DNA from: Limnochordia bacterium
Lineage (GTDB): Bacteria > Bacillota > Limnochordia > Darwinibacteriales > DTU012
Length of the DNA: 64,000 nt
NCBI GenBank assembly: GCA_007116145.1
Contig: SKJB01000083.1
Location: 5,404-69,403, forward strand
Direction: 5' to 3'
In this document: piece by piece, positions 2,265 through 31,132 of the stretch
Position numbering within the stretch: the first letter of the stretch is position 1
Layout of the letters: the number at the start of each line of letters is the position of its first letter
Translations under genes and position numbers: made by a program
The notes under the pieces: generated by a model
The model's database searches: none
What the model saw: only the letters and a program-made list of their open reading frames with translations
What the model was told of the DNA's origin: nothing

Positions 2265-3449
2265 TTACTTAGAATTCTCCTGCATGAAATTTATATTACT
2301 TTTGACTAACCGATCCATGGCTTCTTGTAAGCGAGCTTCATCGACTGTTAATGAGATCCGAAAATACCGATCCCCTTCAGCACCATAACCAATACCAGGT
2401 GTTATCACTACTCCTGTTTGCGAAAAAACATGGTCAGCAAATTCAATGGAGTTCATCCCGTTCGGTGTGGGTGCCCAAATATATATCGATGCTTGGGGTC
2501 GACCTAATTGCCATCCCATGGTAGTTAACGCTTCGATTACAATATCACGCCTACGCTTGTAAATAGCTAATTGTTCCTCCAATGCATCTTGACTAGAGTC
2601 CAGGGCGATCATGGCTCCATATTGTACTGCTTGAAAGGCTCCGGAGTCAATATTACTTTTTAAGGTGACAAGAGTTTTCACCACATCACTGTGCCCTACT
2701 ACCCAACCAATACGCCAACCAGTCATATTATGAGATTTGGACGGAGACCCAAATTCGATACCTACATCCTTTGCTCCAGGTACTTGCATGAAGGATAAGG
2801 GCTCATAACCATCATATCCCACTTCCAAATAAGCGGCATCATGAGCGATGAGAACATTATACTCCTTAGCAAACGCAACTACCTCGTGAAAGAATTGCCT
2901 GGTCGCTATTGCGCCCGTGGGGTTATTCGGATAATTAATATACATTAACTTTGCTTGGCGGCAGACATCTGTCGGGATATCTGAGAGTATAGGCAAAAAT
3001 CCATTCTCCGCCTTAAGAGGCATAAAATGACATTGACCGCCAGCAAGTGTAATCCCTGCCTGATAAACTGGATATCCAGGATCAGGTACTAGACCGACAT
3101 CACCAGGGTTGAGATAACAAAACGGCAAGTGAGCGATTCCTTCTTTTGAGCCTATTAAAGCTGCAACCTCACTAATGGGATCCAGTTGGACACCATACCT
3201 TCTTTTATACCAGTTTGCTACACTTTGGCGCAACGACTCCATACCGACTGAAGTAGGATACTGATGGTTCGCAGCCGTTTCGGCTTGTGCTTGTAACTCT
3301 GCAACAATGTGCTTTGGTGTTGGTAAATCGGGATCCCCAATGCCCAAATTAATTACATCAATACCTTGCTTCTTAGCATCACTGATCTTCGCCTCTAGTT
3401 GTGCAAATAAATAGGGCGCTAAGTTTTGTAAACGCTCTGCTTTTTTCAT
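2265..3449 (-). CDS. dapL: LL-diaminopimelate aminotransferase (class I/II PLP enzyme)
   Basis: LGIGDPD, IGSKEG, NYPNNPTG, SKSHNMTGWRIG; directly downstream of dapF. Confidence 0.8.
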   Translation of the reverse strand: MKKAERLQNLAPYLFAQLEAKISDAKKQGIDVINLGIGDPDLPTPKHIVAELQAQAETAANHQYPTSVGMESLRQSVANWYKRRYGVQLDPISEVAALIGSKEGIAHLPFCYLNPGDVGLVPDPGYPVYQAGITLAGGQCHFMPLKAENGFLPILSDIPTDVCRQAKLMYINYPNNPTGAIATRQFFHEVVAFAKEYNVLIAHDAAYLEVGYDGYEPLSFMQVPGAKDVGIEFGSPSKSHNMTGWRIGWVVGHSDVVKTLVTLKSNIDSGAFQAVQYGAMIALDSSQDALEEQLAIYKRRRDIVIEALTTMGWQLGRPQASIYIWAPTPNGMNSIEFADHVFSQTGVVITPGIGYGAEGDRYFRISLTVDEARLQEAMDRLVKSNINFMQENSK

Positions 3450-3465
3450 CTTTTCATGTTCCTCT

Positions 3466-4284
3466 CTACGAGTATATTGTGTATTCTCCTCGAAATACTA
3501 GTGTTGCTGGTCCAGTCATCCATACATGATTGTCACTCTTCCACTCTATATACAAGTCCCCTCCAGGCAAAGACACCTGTACATGTTTATCAGTTAGACC
3601 AAGGTGAGCTGCAACAACAGCACTAGCACACGCTCCTGTTCCGCACGCTAACGTGGGACCAACACCTCGCTCCCAAACTTTTACGTTGATATGCTGCCTG
3701 TTTACTAACTGCACAAATTCAATATTAGCTTTTGCAGGAAAGATAGGATTCGTTTCTAAAATCGGACCAATCTGATTAAGAACAACACTATCAACGGTCG
3801 AAACAAAGACAACACCGTGGGGGTTACCCATGGACACACCGTGAATCTCCCATTTGCGATCCAAAACTTGAATTGTATGTCCAAAAGAGGTGCCCTGGAC
3901 ATTCATGGGTATATCACGCACGTCTAAAATGGGTTCACCCATATCTACAGTGTAGAGGTTATTACGGACAGACACATCTCGACTAGCCTTTAACGTACCT
4001 ATTGTTAGGTGATCTCCTTGAACATAACCATAATCAAGCAAATGCTTAGCTAGACAACGAATGGCATTCCCGCACATTTCTGCCTCCGTTCCATCTGCAT
4101 TAAAAATACGCATTGTATAATCCTTATCTGGTTTGGTAATGAGTACAAAACCATCACTACCAATCCCAAAATTCCGATCACAGATCTCTCGTGCTAACCG
4201 GGGAGCTATCGCCAATAAATCCCCAGCAAAATCTTCCGTAAAAACAAAATCATTTCCTAGTCCCTGATATTTATAAAACTTCAT
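3466..4284 (-). CDS. dapF: Diaminopimelate epimerase
   Basis: GLGNDF, AEMCGNAIRC, SMGNPH, ERGVGPTLACGTGA. Confidence 0.95.
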   Translation of the reverse strand: MKFYKYQGLGNDFVFTEDFAGDLLAIAPRLAREICDRNFGIGSDGFVLITKPDKDYTMRIFNADGTEAEMCGNAIRCLAKHLLDYGYVQGDHLTIGTLKASRDVSVRNNLYTVDMGEPILDVRDIPMNVQGTSFGHTIQVLDRKWEIHGVSMGNPHGVVFVSTVDSVVLNQIGPILETNPIFPAKANIEFVQLVNRQHINVKVWERGVGPTLACGTGACASAVVAAHLGLTDKHVQVSLPGGDLYIEWKSDNHVWMTGPATLVFRGEYTIYS

Positions 4285-25382: not shown

Positions 25383-26120
25383 TCATAGAAACTCCCCTAA
25401 ATCTGTAACTAAGCGTTCAAAGCGATTAATGCTTAGAATTGCCTTAGCCACACCTGGACCATAGCACTGTCTGTCACTTACATCATGTTGGATGGTCAGG
25501 GATTCACCATCGCCCCCAAAAACCACCTCTTGATGGGGCAACACTCCAGATAAGCGTAAACTATGGGTGGATATATCTTTATGTTTAAAGCCTGATACTT
25601 TTTTCATTTCCTTCACCATTAACTTCGATGTCCCCGATGGACATTCCCTCTTATCAGGATTATAAATATCGACAATCGCTGCTTCGTTGAAGACTTGAGC
25701 TGCTAACCGCGCAGCTTGCAACATTATTAAAGCCCCCAAAGAAAAGTTAGGGATAAGAGCACCGCCTAACCCATGTTTCTCACACAGCCGACTAAACGCT
25801 TGCATCTCATCAGCACTAAATCCTGTGGACCCGATAATTGGGTGAATTCCCAACAAAACACTGGGAAGAAAATGTTCCTTTGCCACTTCAGGTGGACTAA
25901 AATCCACCCAAATTGTCGGACTTGTCTTATCCACTGCCTCACGAAAGTTGTCAAGAATTGGTACTTGGCTATCAAAATTTGCTAAAACACAGCGCATGTC
26001 ACTACCTACATACTTACGGCCTAATACTCCTACCACATTCATATCAGCCCGAGACGACAAATAACGAACGACTTCACGACCAGTCTTACCCGTTCCTCCA
26101 GCAACCATTACACGATGCAT
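25383..26120 (-). CDS. DapB-like reductase with altered substrate loop
   Basis: GGTGKTG, VDFS, IGSTG, PNFSLG, K..CPSGT, HSLR, HQEVVFG. Confidence 0.75.
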   Translation of the reverse strand: MHRVMVAGGTGKTGREVVRYLSSRADMNVVGVLGRKYVGSDMRCVLANFDSQVPILDNFREAVDKTSPTIWVDFSPPEVAKEHFLPSVLLGIHPIIGSTGFSADEMQAFSRLCEKHGLGGALIPNFSLGALIMLQAARLAAQVFNEAAIVDIYNPDKRECPSGTSKLMVKEMKKVSGFKHKDISTHSLRLSGVLPHQEVVFGGDGESLTIQHDVSDRQCYGPGVAKAILSINRFERLVTDLGEFL

Positions 26121-26231: not shown

Positions 26232-28865
26232 TTATGCGTGTTTACGTTCGTTCACTACAGTCTTTCTACGAGTTTCCACAACACGCTGCCAAATATCCTC
26301 CGATAACGGTAAATCGAAACTACGGAATCCAGCGAGCTTAAATCCGTGAACAGTCGCTAACTTTCGTAATCGATTCAGATGATCCAAATTCAGGTCCGCA
26401 CCAATACTAGTATTCTCGTAAAGGTGTTCTAATCCTAGCATCATAGTCTCTGACATACAAGCGTAAGCGGTCCCTACGTCAAAACCAAAATTCCAACCTA
26501 AGTCTGGCTTTCCTGGCACTTCAATGATACCGCCATCCATCACTAGTACATCACTACGATTCTCTAAAATATCACGATGAACATTAGCTGGACGAGACAT
26601 ATCACAAATCAATGCGCCCCATTTTACCATATCGGATGTTATCATAGCATCCGTACTACTTGTTGCTGCGAGGATAATGTCAGCTTTTGGCAACCAATGC
26701 TTGTGATCAACAGTTAGTGTAATCGGACAGCCATTAGCTAATTGGTCCTTTGCAACATCAATCCATACTGATAGCGGAGAATCTAGCTCAGGAAGATTCG
26801 CTAAGTTGGCAACATACGAACCGATACTGCCCGCTACAAATGTTTTTCCTAGGCTTAGCTGCTTAGCTAGATACTGAAATATTTCAGCTACTACTTTAAG
26901 CATCCGATATTCACTTTTCTCGGGTCGATCAGGATTACCCACTAAGATAAGCTCCTTAACATCCTCTGACAATAGAATCGCCGAAGCTTTTCCAATAGCA
27001 CCACCGGCTCCAACCACTGCTGCTGTAACATCAGCCAGTTCCATACCCAACCGTGTTGCACCGATGGTTAGGGCTTCTACACCAGATAGCACCGTGTAAC
27101 TATTTCCAGTGGTCAAAGGAACTTCCACCTGGCTTAATAACGAACGACCACCTGCTGTAACCACGGATGTATAAGCACCGAGTCCCACAATCTTAGCACC
27201 GCGACTTACTGCTAGCTCAATTGCCGCGGTCATTTCTGATAACACTTTGTCTCTAGGCATGGCCCTCAATTCTTGAGCAGTGCGAGGCACTGCAATGAAA
27301 TCGCCAAACGCACTCTTCCCAGCAGGGCTCGAAATCCTCACACTTGCGACTAAGAATGGTTCAACCATATCGCTCCAACGAGCGGACAAATCACCTAATT
27401 GCTCAATGTCAAATACACGTAAGCTCTCATCAAAATCGGAGTAATTCTTCATATCAATAGGATGAATTAAAAAAGCAAATCGACCTTCATTGGGATCTTC
27501 GACAGACTCAATTACTGGTCGCGGCGCATTCACCCCCGCATTATGATCGGGCACTTCAAAATCAATTAAATGTCCTAAAAATGCTGCTGTATTCCGTTTG
27601 GCTAACATGGCCACCGCACGTTCAATACTAACTAACGCTCGTTCAATCTGCTCCATTGTAGTTATCAATGGTGGTTCAATCCGAATTACGCTTGCTCCAT
27701 TTAGCGTTGGAGCTACTCGCAAGCCTTCAACATTTAGCAAGTAGCTGGCGATCATCGGTGTTAATATTTCTTGCTCGGCCATAACGCCCAATAAGCTTTC
27801 AGGATACAAAGAACGGGAATTGCCAAAATCGATCCCTAACATAAACCCTCGTCCGCGAATTGCTTGGATAATCTGCGGGTATCTTTTTTGAATCTCAAGT
27901 AAACCGTTTTTAAGAATGGCGCCTTTATGAGCCACCTCTTGTATTAATCGTCCATCATCACACGTCAATAGATCTAAGACTTTAAGTCCAACACGACAGG
28001 CTAATGTATTACCACCAAATGTGGACGAGTGCTTCATTCCAAAATCATCTGTATATACATCAGCCGTACACAATACTGCTCCAATGGGTACCAACCCGCC
28101 ACCCAAAGCCTTGGCTAATGTCATAATATCAGGCGAAACACCTTCAGCATTACAAGCAAATAAGTGACCGGTTCGACCTAACCCAGTTTGTATCTCATCA
28201 AATATGAGTAAAACACCATACTCAGCACAGATAGCCTTTGCCTCAGCTAGATAACTTTTTGGTGGTTCGATAATACCACCCTCGCCTTGTATCGGTTCAA
28301 TGATAAAAGCGGCTATATCTTGTCCTTGACTGGACAATACTGCACGAAGTTGCGCAATATCACCATAGAGAATATATTGAAACCCAGCTACCGGTGCACC
28401 AAACACTGTTTGATACCCACTATTCCCAGTTGCTGACAAAGCTCCTAGTGTTTTCCCATGAAAACTATTGTGTGTGGTTAAAATTCCCATCCGACCAGTC
28501 TTTGCTCTTGCGAGCTTAATAGCGGCTTCAACTGCTTCGGCTCCGCTATTAGCAAATGTTACTTGAGTTAATCCTGATGGCGCAACCTCAGCTAGACGCT
28601 TTCCTAAAGCACCTGCTGCTTCCAATAGTGACGGCTGGGTAAAACTTGGTTCTAAGCTTGCTTGGATATCATTAACTGCTTGCCAAATCTCAGGCGGATT
28701 AAAGCCAAAAGGTAACGCTCCGTAAGCAGCGATAAAATCCAGATACGATTTACCTTTATGATCATAAAGATAACAGCCTTCTCCTTTTACATATTGCTTA
28801 TCTAACCCTATTTCGACTAGGCGTTTACCTAGGTACGGATTAATATTTTCTAGATACGGGTGCAT
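26232..28865 (-). CDS. Class III aminotransferase fused to an acyl-ACP/thioester reductase-like domain
   Basis: NSGAEAVE, FHGKT, EPIQGEGG, DEIQTG, AKALGGG; C-terminal FAFLIHP, GLGAYTS, TTGNSYT, GAGGAIG, DMSRP, YACMSE; ATG 28865 after GGGAGG. Confidence 0.85.
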   Translation of the reverse strand: MHPYLENINPYLGKRLVEIGLDKQYVKGEGCYLYDHKGKSYLDFIAAYGALPFGFNPPEIWQAVNDIQASLEPSFTQPSLLEAAGALGKRLAEVAPSGLTQVTFANSGAEAVEAAIKLARAKTGRMGILTTHNSFHGKTLGALSATGNSGYQTVFGAPVAGFQYILYGDIAQLRAVLSSQGQDIAAFIIEPIQGEGGIIEPPKSYLAEAKAICAEYGVLLIFDEIQTGLGRTGHLFACNAEGVSPDIMTLAKALGGGLVPIGAVLCTADVYTDDFGMKHSSTFGGNTLACRVGLKVLDLLTCDDGRLIQEVAHKGAILKNGLLEIQKRYPQIIQAIRGRGFMLGIDFGNSRSLYPESLLGVMAEQEILTPMIASYLLNVEGLRVAPTLNGASVIRIEPPLITTMEQIERALVSIERAVAMLAKRNTAAFLGHLIDFEVPDHNAGVNAPRPVIESVEDPNEGRFAFLIHPIDMKNYSDFDESLRVFDIEQLGDLSARWSDMVEPFLVASVRISSPAGKSAFGDFIAVPRTAQELRAMPRDKVLSEMTAAIELAVSRGAKIVGLGAYTSVVTAGGRSLLSQVEVPLTTGNSYTVLSGVEALTIGATRLGMELADVTAAVVGAGGAIGKASAILLSEDVKELILVGNPDRPEKSEYRMLKVVAEIFQYLAKQLSLGKTFVAGSIGSYVANLANLPELDSPLSVWIDVAKDQLANGCPITLTVDHKHWLPKADIILAATSSTDAMITSDMVKWGALICDMSRPANVHRDILENRSDVLVMDGGIIEVPGKPDLGWNFGFDVGTAYACMSETMMLGLEHLYENTSIGADLNLDHLNRLRKLATVHGFKLAGFRSFDLPLSEDIWQRVVETRRKTVVNERKHA

Positions 28866-28912
28866 AGTGAACCTCCCATTCTCGTATGTACACATTTTTG
28901 TGCACAAACATA

Positions 28913-29716
28913 TTATAGCAAGTTTTTACAGAAAACACAATGCCTTAGTTTGGATAGATTGACATATTCGATTGCGATTACCGTCAGAAATCCCATCCCG
29001 ATCCAAAAAATATTACGTAAGTTCCAGATATCTATAAGCAGCATGGGTACAGACCCAAGTATCATACCAGCTAACAACGCTAAAGTAACCCTTGGATAAC
29101 GAGTTAATAGAAAGCTCATAACCCAGGCTAATAGGATTAAACCGCCAATAACACCAAGTGCAAAGGGAATAAGAAGTGAGAATTGTAGTTGGACAACGGC
29201 CTGAAGTGTTAACTCATATAGACCTAATATCACTAAGACTGTTGATCCACTAATTCCAGGTAATAACATGGCTGTACTTGATAAAACTCCAGCTATAAAC
29301 ATGCCAAGAAAAGGGTTTTTCCCTAAGTCAATAAATGCACTAGTACCAAAAGTAAATGCAGCGACGATCACAAAACCTAGCAAAAACAGGGGACAGATAA
29401 GTCCCTGGCGACCGGGTCCAATCTTTTTAATCACTACCCAGACAGACGCTAAAATAAGACCGGTTAATACGCTTTGTGTACCCGTGGGATAGGATTCTAA
29501 GATAAAAACAACCCCTCTAGAAGCCAACAAAATACTAAATATTACCCCGAGCCCAAAGGGTAGCAGCTTTTTAATGCACAGCTTCTTTAACGCATCAATT
29601 AATTCATCATAAAAGCCTAACACCAACATTGTTGTCCCACCACTAATCCCTGGTAATACATTTGCGAAGCCTAGGGGCAAACCACGTAGAAACCATAGTA
29701 GGCACTTTTTTATCAT
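28913..29716 (-). CDS. DUF368 protein (undecaprenyl-phosphate translocase family)
   Basis: Two repeats, PGISGGT and LPGISGS; multi-TM. Confidence 0.85.
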   Translation of the reverse strand: MIKKCLLWFLRGLPLGFANVLPGISGGTTMLVLGFYDELIDALKKLCIKKLLPFGLGVIFSILLASRGVVFILESYPTGTQSVLTGLILASVWVVIKKIGPGRQGLICPLFLLGFVIVAAFTFGTSAFIDLGKNPFLGMFIAGVLSSTAMLLPGISGSTVLVILGLYELTLQAVVQLQFSLLIPFALGVIGGLILLAWVMSFLLTRYPRVTLALLAGMILGSVPMLLIDIWNLRNIFWIGMGFLTVIAIEYVNLSKLRHCVFCKNLL

Positions 29717-29866: not shown

Positions 29867-31132
29867 TTGAAGCGACCAATTCAATGTACACTCCTCATTC
29901 TGCTTTTGTGCATCAATGCTCCTACAGGGCGAGCGCAGAAACAGCTAGATGTTTTTTTTCTGCCAGAACAAGGATTTTTACGAGTAGACAGCAGCTTACT
30001 TGTAGACATCAATGGCGATTCATTCGAATTTGAGTTATTCCCAAATGCACAGATTACAGCATTATGGATTCCTAACTTAGCAAAGTATACGATTGAACGA
30101 ACACGTAGTCAGACAACTGTTCGTATAGTTTTACGTGAGCCTACTACTTCTCCAACAGTCTTAGATCTTGTTTACGAAGGATTCCTTGCTCATTCCCATC
30201 ATAGCACCGCCGGGATCCTAGACCAAAGCTCGCTTTGGTTTCCTAGCTTCTTCATACCAGTAACATCATCACCAATGCAGATTACTGTACCGAGAGGGAT
30301 TACAGCTATCTTACCAGGAATACTACAGAATCACCGAGAAACGGATTTCTCTATTTATACCTGGGAAATCGAAGGCTATCCAATACTACGATTTGGATCA
30401 GAGTTACTCCTTGAACAAAGGGACCAAATTGATACCCATATAGATACCCATATAGATCAAGAAGAAATCATAGAAGAGGAAGTCATTGAGGAAACCATTG
30501 ATGTGGATCAAGCCGAACTCATTAATACCATTGCACGGTGGGACCAAGCACTAGCTAAGCGCGATAGAGTCAAGCTAGCATCGCTGATTCATCCCGAATT
30601 TGATCAACAGGAGGCGTTCATGTCCTATTTAGTCGATCGTCCTAGTTATATCGAGACGTTTTCGACACAGCTAACAGATCTGGAGATCCGTGACATGTAT
30701 TCTTTGGTTACTGGCTACCTAACAACAAATACACCTACCATTTATCAAACAACATCGAGCTGGCAACAGCAAGGTAAAGCGTGGCTGTTACGCAACTTCA
30801 ACATGCGACCACTACCTGAGCTACCAAACGCTGAACTACTCCAAACATTAGAACACTGGTTTGCTTCATTTTATTATGCGGTAAAAAATAGCGATAGCAC
30901 CTGGCTAACTCGTCATCTGCAAGTACCACCTACGCAGATGCAACCCATAATGCAATTTCTAGAATCATTAGGGAGCGACTATGAGTGGGAGATACACTCA
31001 CTTATTCCAAGGGATCTTGAAGTAATTACGCTCATCTACCTTCCCAACCAGGTAAGACTCAAGCTTATTTATACTATGATACCCACTGAAACAACATGGG
31101 TAGTCTCTGACCTTAAGGTAATTCCACTTTGA
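29867..31132 (+). CDS. Hypothetical secreted multidomain protein
   Basis: TTG start after AAGGGGG, signal peptide, acidic linker with a 12-bp tandem duplication (30431-30454). Confidence 0.75.
   Translation: MKRPIQCTLLILLLCINAPTGRAQKQLDVFFLPEQGFLRVDSSLLVDINGDSFEFELFPNAQITALWIPNLAKYTIERTRSQTTVRIVLREPTTSPTVLDLVYEGFLAHSHHSTAGILDQSSLWFPSFFIPVTSSPMQITVPRGITAILPGILQNHRETDFSIYTWEIEGYPILRFGSELLLEQRDQIDTHIDTHIDQEEIIEEEVIEETIDVDQAELINTIARWDQALAKRDRVKLASLIHPEFDQQEAFMSYLVDRPSYIETFSTQLTDLEIRDMYSLVTGYLTTNTPTIYQTTSSWQQQGKAWLLRNFNMRPLPELPNAELLQTLEHWFASFYYAVKNSDSTWLTRHLQVPPTQMQPIMQFLESLGSDYEWEIHSLIPRDLEVITLIYLPNQVRLKLIYTMIPTETTWVVSDLKVIPL

Follow-up and report, generated by a model that had tools for sequence, protein, structure and literature searches.

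What does a protein that joins a class III transaminase to an acyl-thioester reductase do in a bacterium of the class Limnochordia? The gene in question lies on a 64,000-nucleotide stretch of contig SKJB01000083.1 (assembly GCA_007116145.1), hereafter the window. A preliminary description had taken its product to make long-chain primary amines from fatty acyl chains bound to acyl carrier protein (ACP) or CoA, for an amino-lipid or envelope modification not yet described. Comparison across genomes suggests that the fusion is probably a housekeeping synthase of long-chain alkylamines, providing N-glyceroyl-alkylamine phosphoglycolipids with their amine tail. The product is still most likely a long-chain amine destined for a membrane lipid, but the lipid is probably not an undescribed one: N-glyceroyl alkylamine phosphoglycolipids are already known and match the gene distribution.

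The domain content and the catalytic residues are read directly from the gene, whose features are listed below (PLP, pyridoxal 5'-phosphate; AAR, acyl-ACP reductase).

26232..28865, minus strand: transaminase-thioester reductase fusion gene, 877 aa, a single uninterrupted open reading frame with no internal stop
27612..28865, minus strand: class III PLP transaminase domain, residues 1-418 (PF00202, Aminotran_3, E 2e-99, match at residues ~25-418)
28110..28112, minus strand: PLP-binding Lys252 (LAKALGGG), invariant in 16/16 aligned rows
26235..27485, minus strand: AAR-like acyl-thioester reductase domain, residues ~461-877, by homology to PigE and AAR
26991..27011, minus strand: glycine motif GAGGAIG (residues 619-625), nucleotide-binding, by alignment and motif
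26457..26459, minus strand: predicted catalytic Cys803, equivalent of SeAAR C294, by alignment; invariant in 28/28 rows
28872..28877, minus strand: ribosome-binding site GGGAGG, from the sequence

The ATG at 28865 is the likely start because of the ribosome-binding site at 28872-28877; a scan for promoters and terminators did not stand out from chance (8 vs 11.7; 5 vs 4.4). All the motifs on which the preliminary description had relied are present, at residues 465 (FLIHP), 561 (GLGAYTS), 585 (TTGNSYT), 619 (GAGGAIG) and 801 (YACMSE), and together with the Pfam match they bear out its picture of an N-terminal class III aminotransferase joined to a motif-bearing domain. The best solved relatives of the transaminase domain are PigE (4PPM, E 4.5e-84) and PatA (E 8e-81). 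The C-terminal domain matches PigE's N-terminal domain (E 3.5e-24 to 4PPM) and also Synechococcus AAR (E 7e-11 to 6JZQ), with YACMSE aligned on FACFAE of AAR and Cys803 on C294. Both domains are thus homologous to PigE and the reductase to AAR, and the assignment of the motifs to an AAR-type domain with a catalytic Cys is upheld. Of 120 full-length homologues scored by their motifs, 119 retain the Cys and 117 the PLP-Lys motif. Named homologues belong to Limnochordia, Candidatus Darwinibacter and Symbiobacterium thermophilum, the last with 55% identity across 871 columns. Relative to stand-alone reductases, the fused reductase domain carries an insertion of ~70 residues.

The window gene encodes a TamH-type fusion that is intact and stands in a new setting, that of primary metabolism, and it is very likely that its product forms a primary amine out of an acyl thioester. 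We infer the reaction from homology: a fatty acyl chain from the cell's single ACP would move onto Cys803, as in TamH and AAR, NAD(P)H would reduce the bound acyl to the aldehyde, and the PLP domain would turn the aldehyde into the primary amine through Lys252, the amino group coming from Glu or Ala. An amide bond would next link this amine to glycerate, and the product would be joined to phosphatidate.

The same two parts are found elsewhere in the phylum as separate genes. The reductase is common there, mostly as a stand-alone gene in the order dusB - helix-turn-helix (HTH) gene - c0 - reductase - greA-lysS, in which c0 designates a 300-aa protein with no Pfam match and the Atlas name 'quinate 5-dehydrogenase'. 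In the phylum sample of 251 genomes, in which related genomes are not independent, c0 was detected in 191, the reductase in 165 and this type of transaminase in 145, and 144 of these 145 transaminase genomes also carry the reductase. All three parts occur together in 143 genomes, none of them in 57 and c0 only in 28. Twenty loci chosen for a strong stand-alone reductase contained c0 in 17 cases and the HTH gene in 15. Directly after c0, an independent set of 80 loci chosen by this gene had an intact reductase (36), the fusion (3), a relic (7) or no recognised gene (28), and 6 loci were unreadable. In addition, an unfused transaminase lies directly before the reductase, in the same order, in 3 genomes, and two library proteins are fusions of c0 with the reductase.

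The fusion, found across 16 families of the phylum sample, appears to have taken the place of the split genes. A stand-alone transaminase of this type is missing from 33 of the 35 fusion genomes, whereas 109 of the 130 genomes with a reductase but no fusion possess one. The slot behind c0 was compared in 18 fusion genomes; it was empty (6, including this genome) or held a Cys-less relic (6), an unrecognisable open reading frame (2), a diverged copy with the Cys (1), the fusion itself (2) or the contig end (1). The genome under study reads dusB-HTH-c0-greA with the slot void, and its HTH gene and c0 (G000:C80:1102-2606, c0 at G000:C80:1102-2016) are unlinked to the fusion. At the level of the order, c0 is present in 39 of 41 genomes and the reductase domain in 38 of 41 with one match each, one exception being split over two contigs. 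As the split genes are displaced by the fusion, the simplest reading is therefore that the fusion does the split pair's job.

The Cys-less relics after c0 are open frames of 300-377 aa in several families (L234:4427-5332, L235:5843-6802, L238:6123-7253, L240:2891-3805, L241:2775-3755 and L069:14196-15302), and they may keep a non-catalytic role.

Which lipid would need such an amine? The cited passages describe in Thermus, Meiothermus and Deinococcus phosphoglycolipids with an alkylamine in amide link to glycerate (PMC3035268, PMC3398001), and the alkylamine-containing phosphoglycolipid is given there as the chemical marker of Deinococcus-Thermus (PMC3035268). N-glyceroyl alkylamines are also reported from Moorella thermoacetica (PMC13274423). 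In the relevant section of a 2022 article, the enzymes for the third chain of the phosphoglycolipid are reported as not identified (PMC9636437). Our literature search, which left subscription papers mostly outside, did not find a gene assignment for N-glyceroyl-alkylamine lipids.

The producer lineages hold the same genes. Among 14 control genomes, the AAR profile matched four, Synechococcus, Thermus, Deinococcus and Methanocaldococcus. In Deinococcota, the reductase is present in 101 of 101 genomes and c0 in 99 of 101, with c0 beside efp-accB-accC in several loci. Meiothermus, Neomoorella, Thermovenabulum and Thermoanaerobacter carry c0, the reductase and the transaminase, the latter scoring well above argD-like paralogues. 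The gene set common to the known producer lineages is therefore reductase and c0 in Deinococcota, and all three parts in Meiothermus and Neomoorella. In the two Deinococcota loci scanned with Pfam (L171:6408-8081 and L172:6147-7814), reductase and PlsY domain form one fusion protein, and the PlsY domain is a candidate for an acyl-phosphate-dependent lipid step. We give about even chances to a wider proposal. In it, the fusion combines in one protein the alkylamine synthase so far missing, and reductase, transaminase and c0 belong to an ancient lipid pathway that most deep-branching Bacillota share with Deinococcota; c0 would act on the glyceroyl-amide step or close to it.

Two further observations were made in the Deinococcota. 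A long-branch clade of ~480-490-aa class III transaminases occurs in genomes without the Thermus-type enzyme (L211:6723-8180, L212:6425-7882, L213:6300-7778, L214:6170-7603) and is a candidate alkylamine transaminase. The Deinococcus radiodurans control gave no match to PF01066 (CDP-alcohol phosphatidyltransferase).

The predicted structure of c0 (mean confidence pLDDT 88, on the predicted local distance difference test) has AAR as best match (Z 14.4, root-mean-square deviation (rmsd) 4.1, 250 aligned residues), followed by the carmabin terminal amidation domain (Z 12.6, rmsd 4.8, 253 aligned). Despite the structural match to AAR, a comparison of the c0 profile with that of the reductase family gave nothing (probability 1.3%). 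There is no cysteine among the conserved columns of c0, and a search of plasmids returned no c0 match. A complex prediction for the reductase domain with c0 scored 0.01, gave no answer and was used neither way. c0, which has the AAR fold and is unlinked but co-inherited, is a candidate for a neighbouring step of the lipid pathway. The choice of the step is speculation, because the carmabin domain is itself only a putative amide-forming enzyme in the published description (bioRxiv 10.1101/2024.10.28.620694) and has an invariant Cys, whereas c0 has no conserved one.

Several observations weigh against the assignment of the fusion to N-glyceroyl-alkylamine lipids. The match of Methanocaldococcus jannaschii to the AAR profile is not accounted for by it. 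Only 42 of the 101 Deinococcota genomes exceed the transaminase cut-off, and five of those below it have only divergent candidates (a long-branch ~480-aa clade or ArgD-like proteins, E from 1e-88 down to 1e-100), which do not outscore ArgD-like paralogues. Escherichia coli PatA also passes this cut-off (1.8e-137), so the transaminase profile is not fully specific. With these queries, 28 of the 191 phylum genomes that carry c0 showed no reductase and no transaminase, the slot holding a decayed or unrecognisable gene in 3 of the 7 c0-only genomes inspected. At the cut-off used, no transaminase was detected in 21 of the 165 reductase genomes. The counts, moreover, come from related and hence non-independent genomes, though the fusion covers 16 families. 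No amide-forming or phosphatidyl-transfer enzyme was identified in this analysis. Finally, since the literature search gave no lipid data for the class of this organism, we infer the lipid end product from other taxa; the chain length is likewise a prediction.

The transaminase and reductase trees of the candidates were quick trees; a careful transaminase tree was built from 28 rows of quick-tree candidates plus one adjacent-pair transaminase. A further reservation comes from the careful tree, in which the fused transaminases group in a separate clade (100/100), natural-product-type enzymes included, and this clade is not resolved as sister of the stand-alone transaminases. The ArgD clade excludes the window transaminase (100/100). 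In the quick tree, the fused reductase clade is distinct from the reductases of Deinococcota.

The reductase genomes that lack the transaminase would be expected if the c0-linked reductase mainly yielded a fatty aldehyde or alcohol that goes into ether, plasmalogen or diol lipids, with the transaminase as an accessory. Long-chain diols, reported in the cited part of the lipid literature to be contained in Meiothermus lipids, point the same way, as do the START-like lipid-binding domains fused to some reductases. This explanation is nevertheless improbable: the transaminase is nearly always found with the reductase (144/145), fused or adjacent to it, with its Lys kept. The START/polyketide-cyclase domains in question occur in proteins P0207, P0227, P0234, P0247, P0261 and P0267 and could possibly act as aldehyde carriers.

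An undescribed lipid or envelope modification of the lineage, as first proposed, would require identical chemistry of the fusion. It would suit the lack of any lipid analysis for the class in the literature search, the lack of an identified downstream ligase and the separation of the fused clade from the Deinococcota reductases. It is rather unlikely, since the c0-linked reductase that the fusion replaces is the one carried by producers of the known lipid. Nor does the gene on the other side of the start codon lend it weight, which like the second flanking gene is given here.

28913..29716, minus strand: DUF368/PF04018 polyprenyl-phosphate transporter-like gene (E 1.6e-44), upstream neighbour, judged to be outside the system
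25383..26120, minus strand: dapB, downstream neighbour (TIGR00036 over cut-off), judged to be syntenic only

The upstream gene had been correctly recognised as a co-oriented DUF368 member, both genes lying on the minus strand, but a functional link to the fusion was not sustained. Over 21 loci compared, DUF368 is near the fusion in 3 and its direct neighbour solely in the window; it occurs in 34 of 41 genomes of the order, mostly away from the fusion, and the profile gave no match in the Thermus or Deinococcus control genomes. As the adjacency is not conserved over the 21 loci, the partnership was dropped and the neighbour is regarded as incidental.

The position of the fusion is fixed among housekeeping genes in the 21 loci, and this bears on whether the amine could serve a secreted alkaloid or pigment, as it does for TamH, PigE and koreenceine-type fusions. 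The nearest characterised enzymes do belong to such pathways, and proteins with adenylation, ACP, transaminase and reductase domains, as well as fusions with polyketide synthase (PKS), fall in the same clade. Yet the 21 loci share no biosynthetic neighbours, and the gene is a near-core single copy in small genomes. The whole genome holds one ACP and one ketosynthase, both inside the fab cluster, and only the two PigE pieces found a match when nine proteins from a prodigiosin locus were searched against it. The earlier remark on the missing nearby pyrrole, PKS and ACP genes is thus in line with the genome, which shows no natural-product cluster, and an alkaloid or pigment is a very improbable end use.

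Relatives of the natural-product type were noted as well. Adenylation-ACP-transaminase-reductase and transaminase-reductase-adenylation proteins (P0126, P0128, P0149, P0129; L207:6606-10793) are one-gene fatty-acid-to-amine designs, and a Leisingera plasmid copy of such a design adjoins MMPL and lipoprotein-sorting genes. In a prodigiosin locus of Pseudoalteromonas xiamenensis, the pigE-like gene (L206:5998-8550) reads, in this record, as two frames of 488 and 395 aa.

The other neighbour suggests a role in amino-acid or polyamine metabolism, by transamination of ornithine, diaminopimelate (DAP) or putrescine. The dapB gene adjoins the fusion in 7 of the 21 loci, and dapB or dapF is nearby in 15 of them; in the same way, the transaminase is close to PatA and the JGI label of the 877-aa protein is acetylornithine/putrescine aminotransferase. 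Such a role is the least probable of the explanations weighed. A separate argD lies in the arg operon of the genome, a DapL-like enzyme is present at 571 bits, just below the 593 cut-off, and DAP dehydrogenase is above its cut-off. The protein itself falls outside the ArgD clade and below the family cut-offs (argD 316 vs 410, PatA 336 vs 612), and the conserved reductase Cys would be left without explanation. A role in lysine or arginine synthesis was rejected, as the argD, DapL-like and DAP dehydrogenase genes already cover both.

Other genes of the surroundings were noted. The DapL-like aminotransferase and a dapF-like gene lie at 2268-4284 of the window on the minus strand and make, with DAP dehydrogenase, two diaminopimelate routes. 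A 421-aa protein without Pfam or NCBIfam match (29867-31132, plus strand) is located divergently upstream of the fusion in 20 of the 21 loci. A second PlsY paralogue of the genome (C50:33904), beside a glycosyltransferase-like gene, was not linked to the fusion system.

If the fusion is indeed an alkylamine synthase for N-glyceroyl-alkylamine lipids, the missing alkylamine-forming step of the Thermus, Deinococcus and Moorella lipids gains an enzyme. Under the wider proposal, the lipid would be much more broadly distributed than current reports show, and the natural-product fusions of tambjamine type would be kin to an enzyme of primary membrane lipids. Thermophile fusions hitherto studied only as biocatalysts would receive a natural role. 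Three widely mislabelled genes would be reannotated (acetylornithine aminotransferase, shikimate-dehydrogenase-like reductase and quinate 5-dehydrogenase) and would serve as markers of a lipid class from hot and anaerobic habitats. A single two-domain protein that apparently replaces split genes makes the proposal directly testable.

Known systems resemble the fusion in some respects and differ in others. PtTamH of tambjamine YP1 is described as converting C12 acyl-ACP to the aldehyde and then the amine, using NADH and Glu (PMC9594044). By this published description, it shares with the window protein the domain order and the catalytic Lys and Cys, but it is encoded in a pyrrole cluster, where TamA serves as its dedicated adenylation-ACP partner, whereas the window gene is near-core and has neither. 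PigE of the prodigiosin pathway (4PPM, NF053554) is homologous in both domains (E 4.5e-84 and 3.5e-24); it differs in its reversed domain order, and the fusion reaches 531 bits against the NF053554 cut-off of 850 and has no pig cluster. Pyrrole genes, a dedicated carrier and a condensing enzyme, which mark tambjamine and prodiginine clusters, were sought genome-wide and none was found apart from the single ACP and ketosynthase of the fab cluster. Cyanobacterial AAR (TIGR04058, 6JZQ) has a homologous reductase domain, with Cys803 on its C294, but the fusion scores 81 bits against a cut-off of 450 and is joined to a transaminase instead of being a stand-alone enzyme of the alkane pathway.

The phosphoglycolipids of Deinococcus, Thermus, Meiothermus and Moorella need, according to the published passages on them, a C15-C17-type primary amine, and their producer lineages hold the split reductase and c0; the difference lies in the reductase, which is stand-alone or PlsY-fused there. 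The same architecture is that of TmFusion, TsFusion and TfFusion (Thermaerobacter, Thermincola), which by their published description likewise consist of an N-terminal class III transaminase and a C-terminal AAR domain and come from thermophilic Bacillota. Their transaminase is reported to be active on aliphatic aldehydes with Glu, Gln or Ala, and the description presents them as an enzyme type without an assigned natural substrate or reductase activity (PMC10829540). The main text of that article does not once use lipid, membrane, alkylamine, Thermus or Deinococcus. As an enzyme type, the Bacillota fusion has thus already been published, and the proposed lipid role is the new part.

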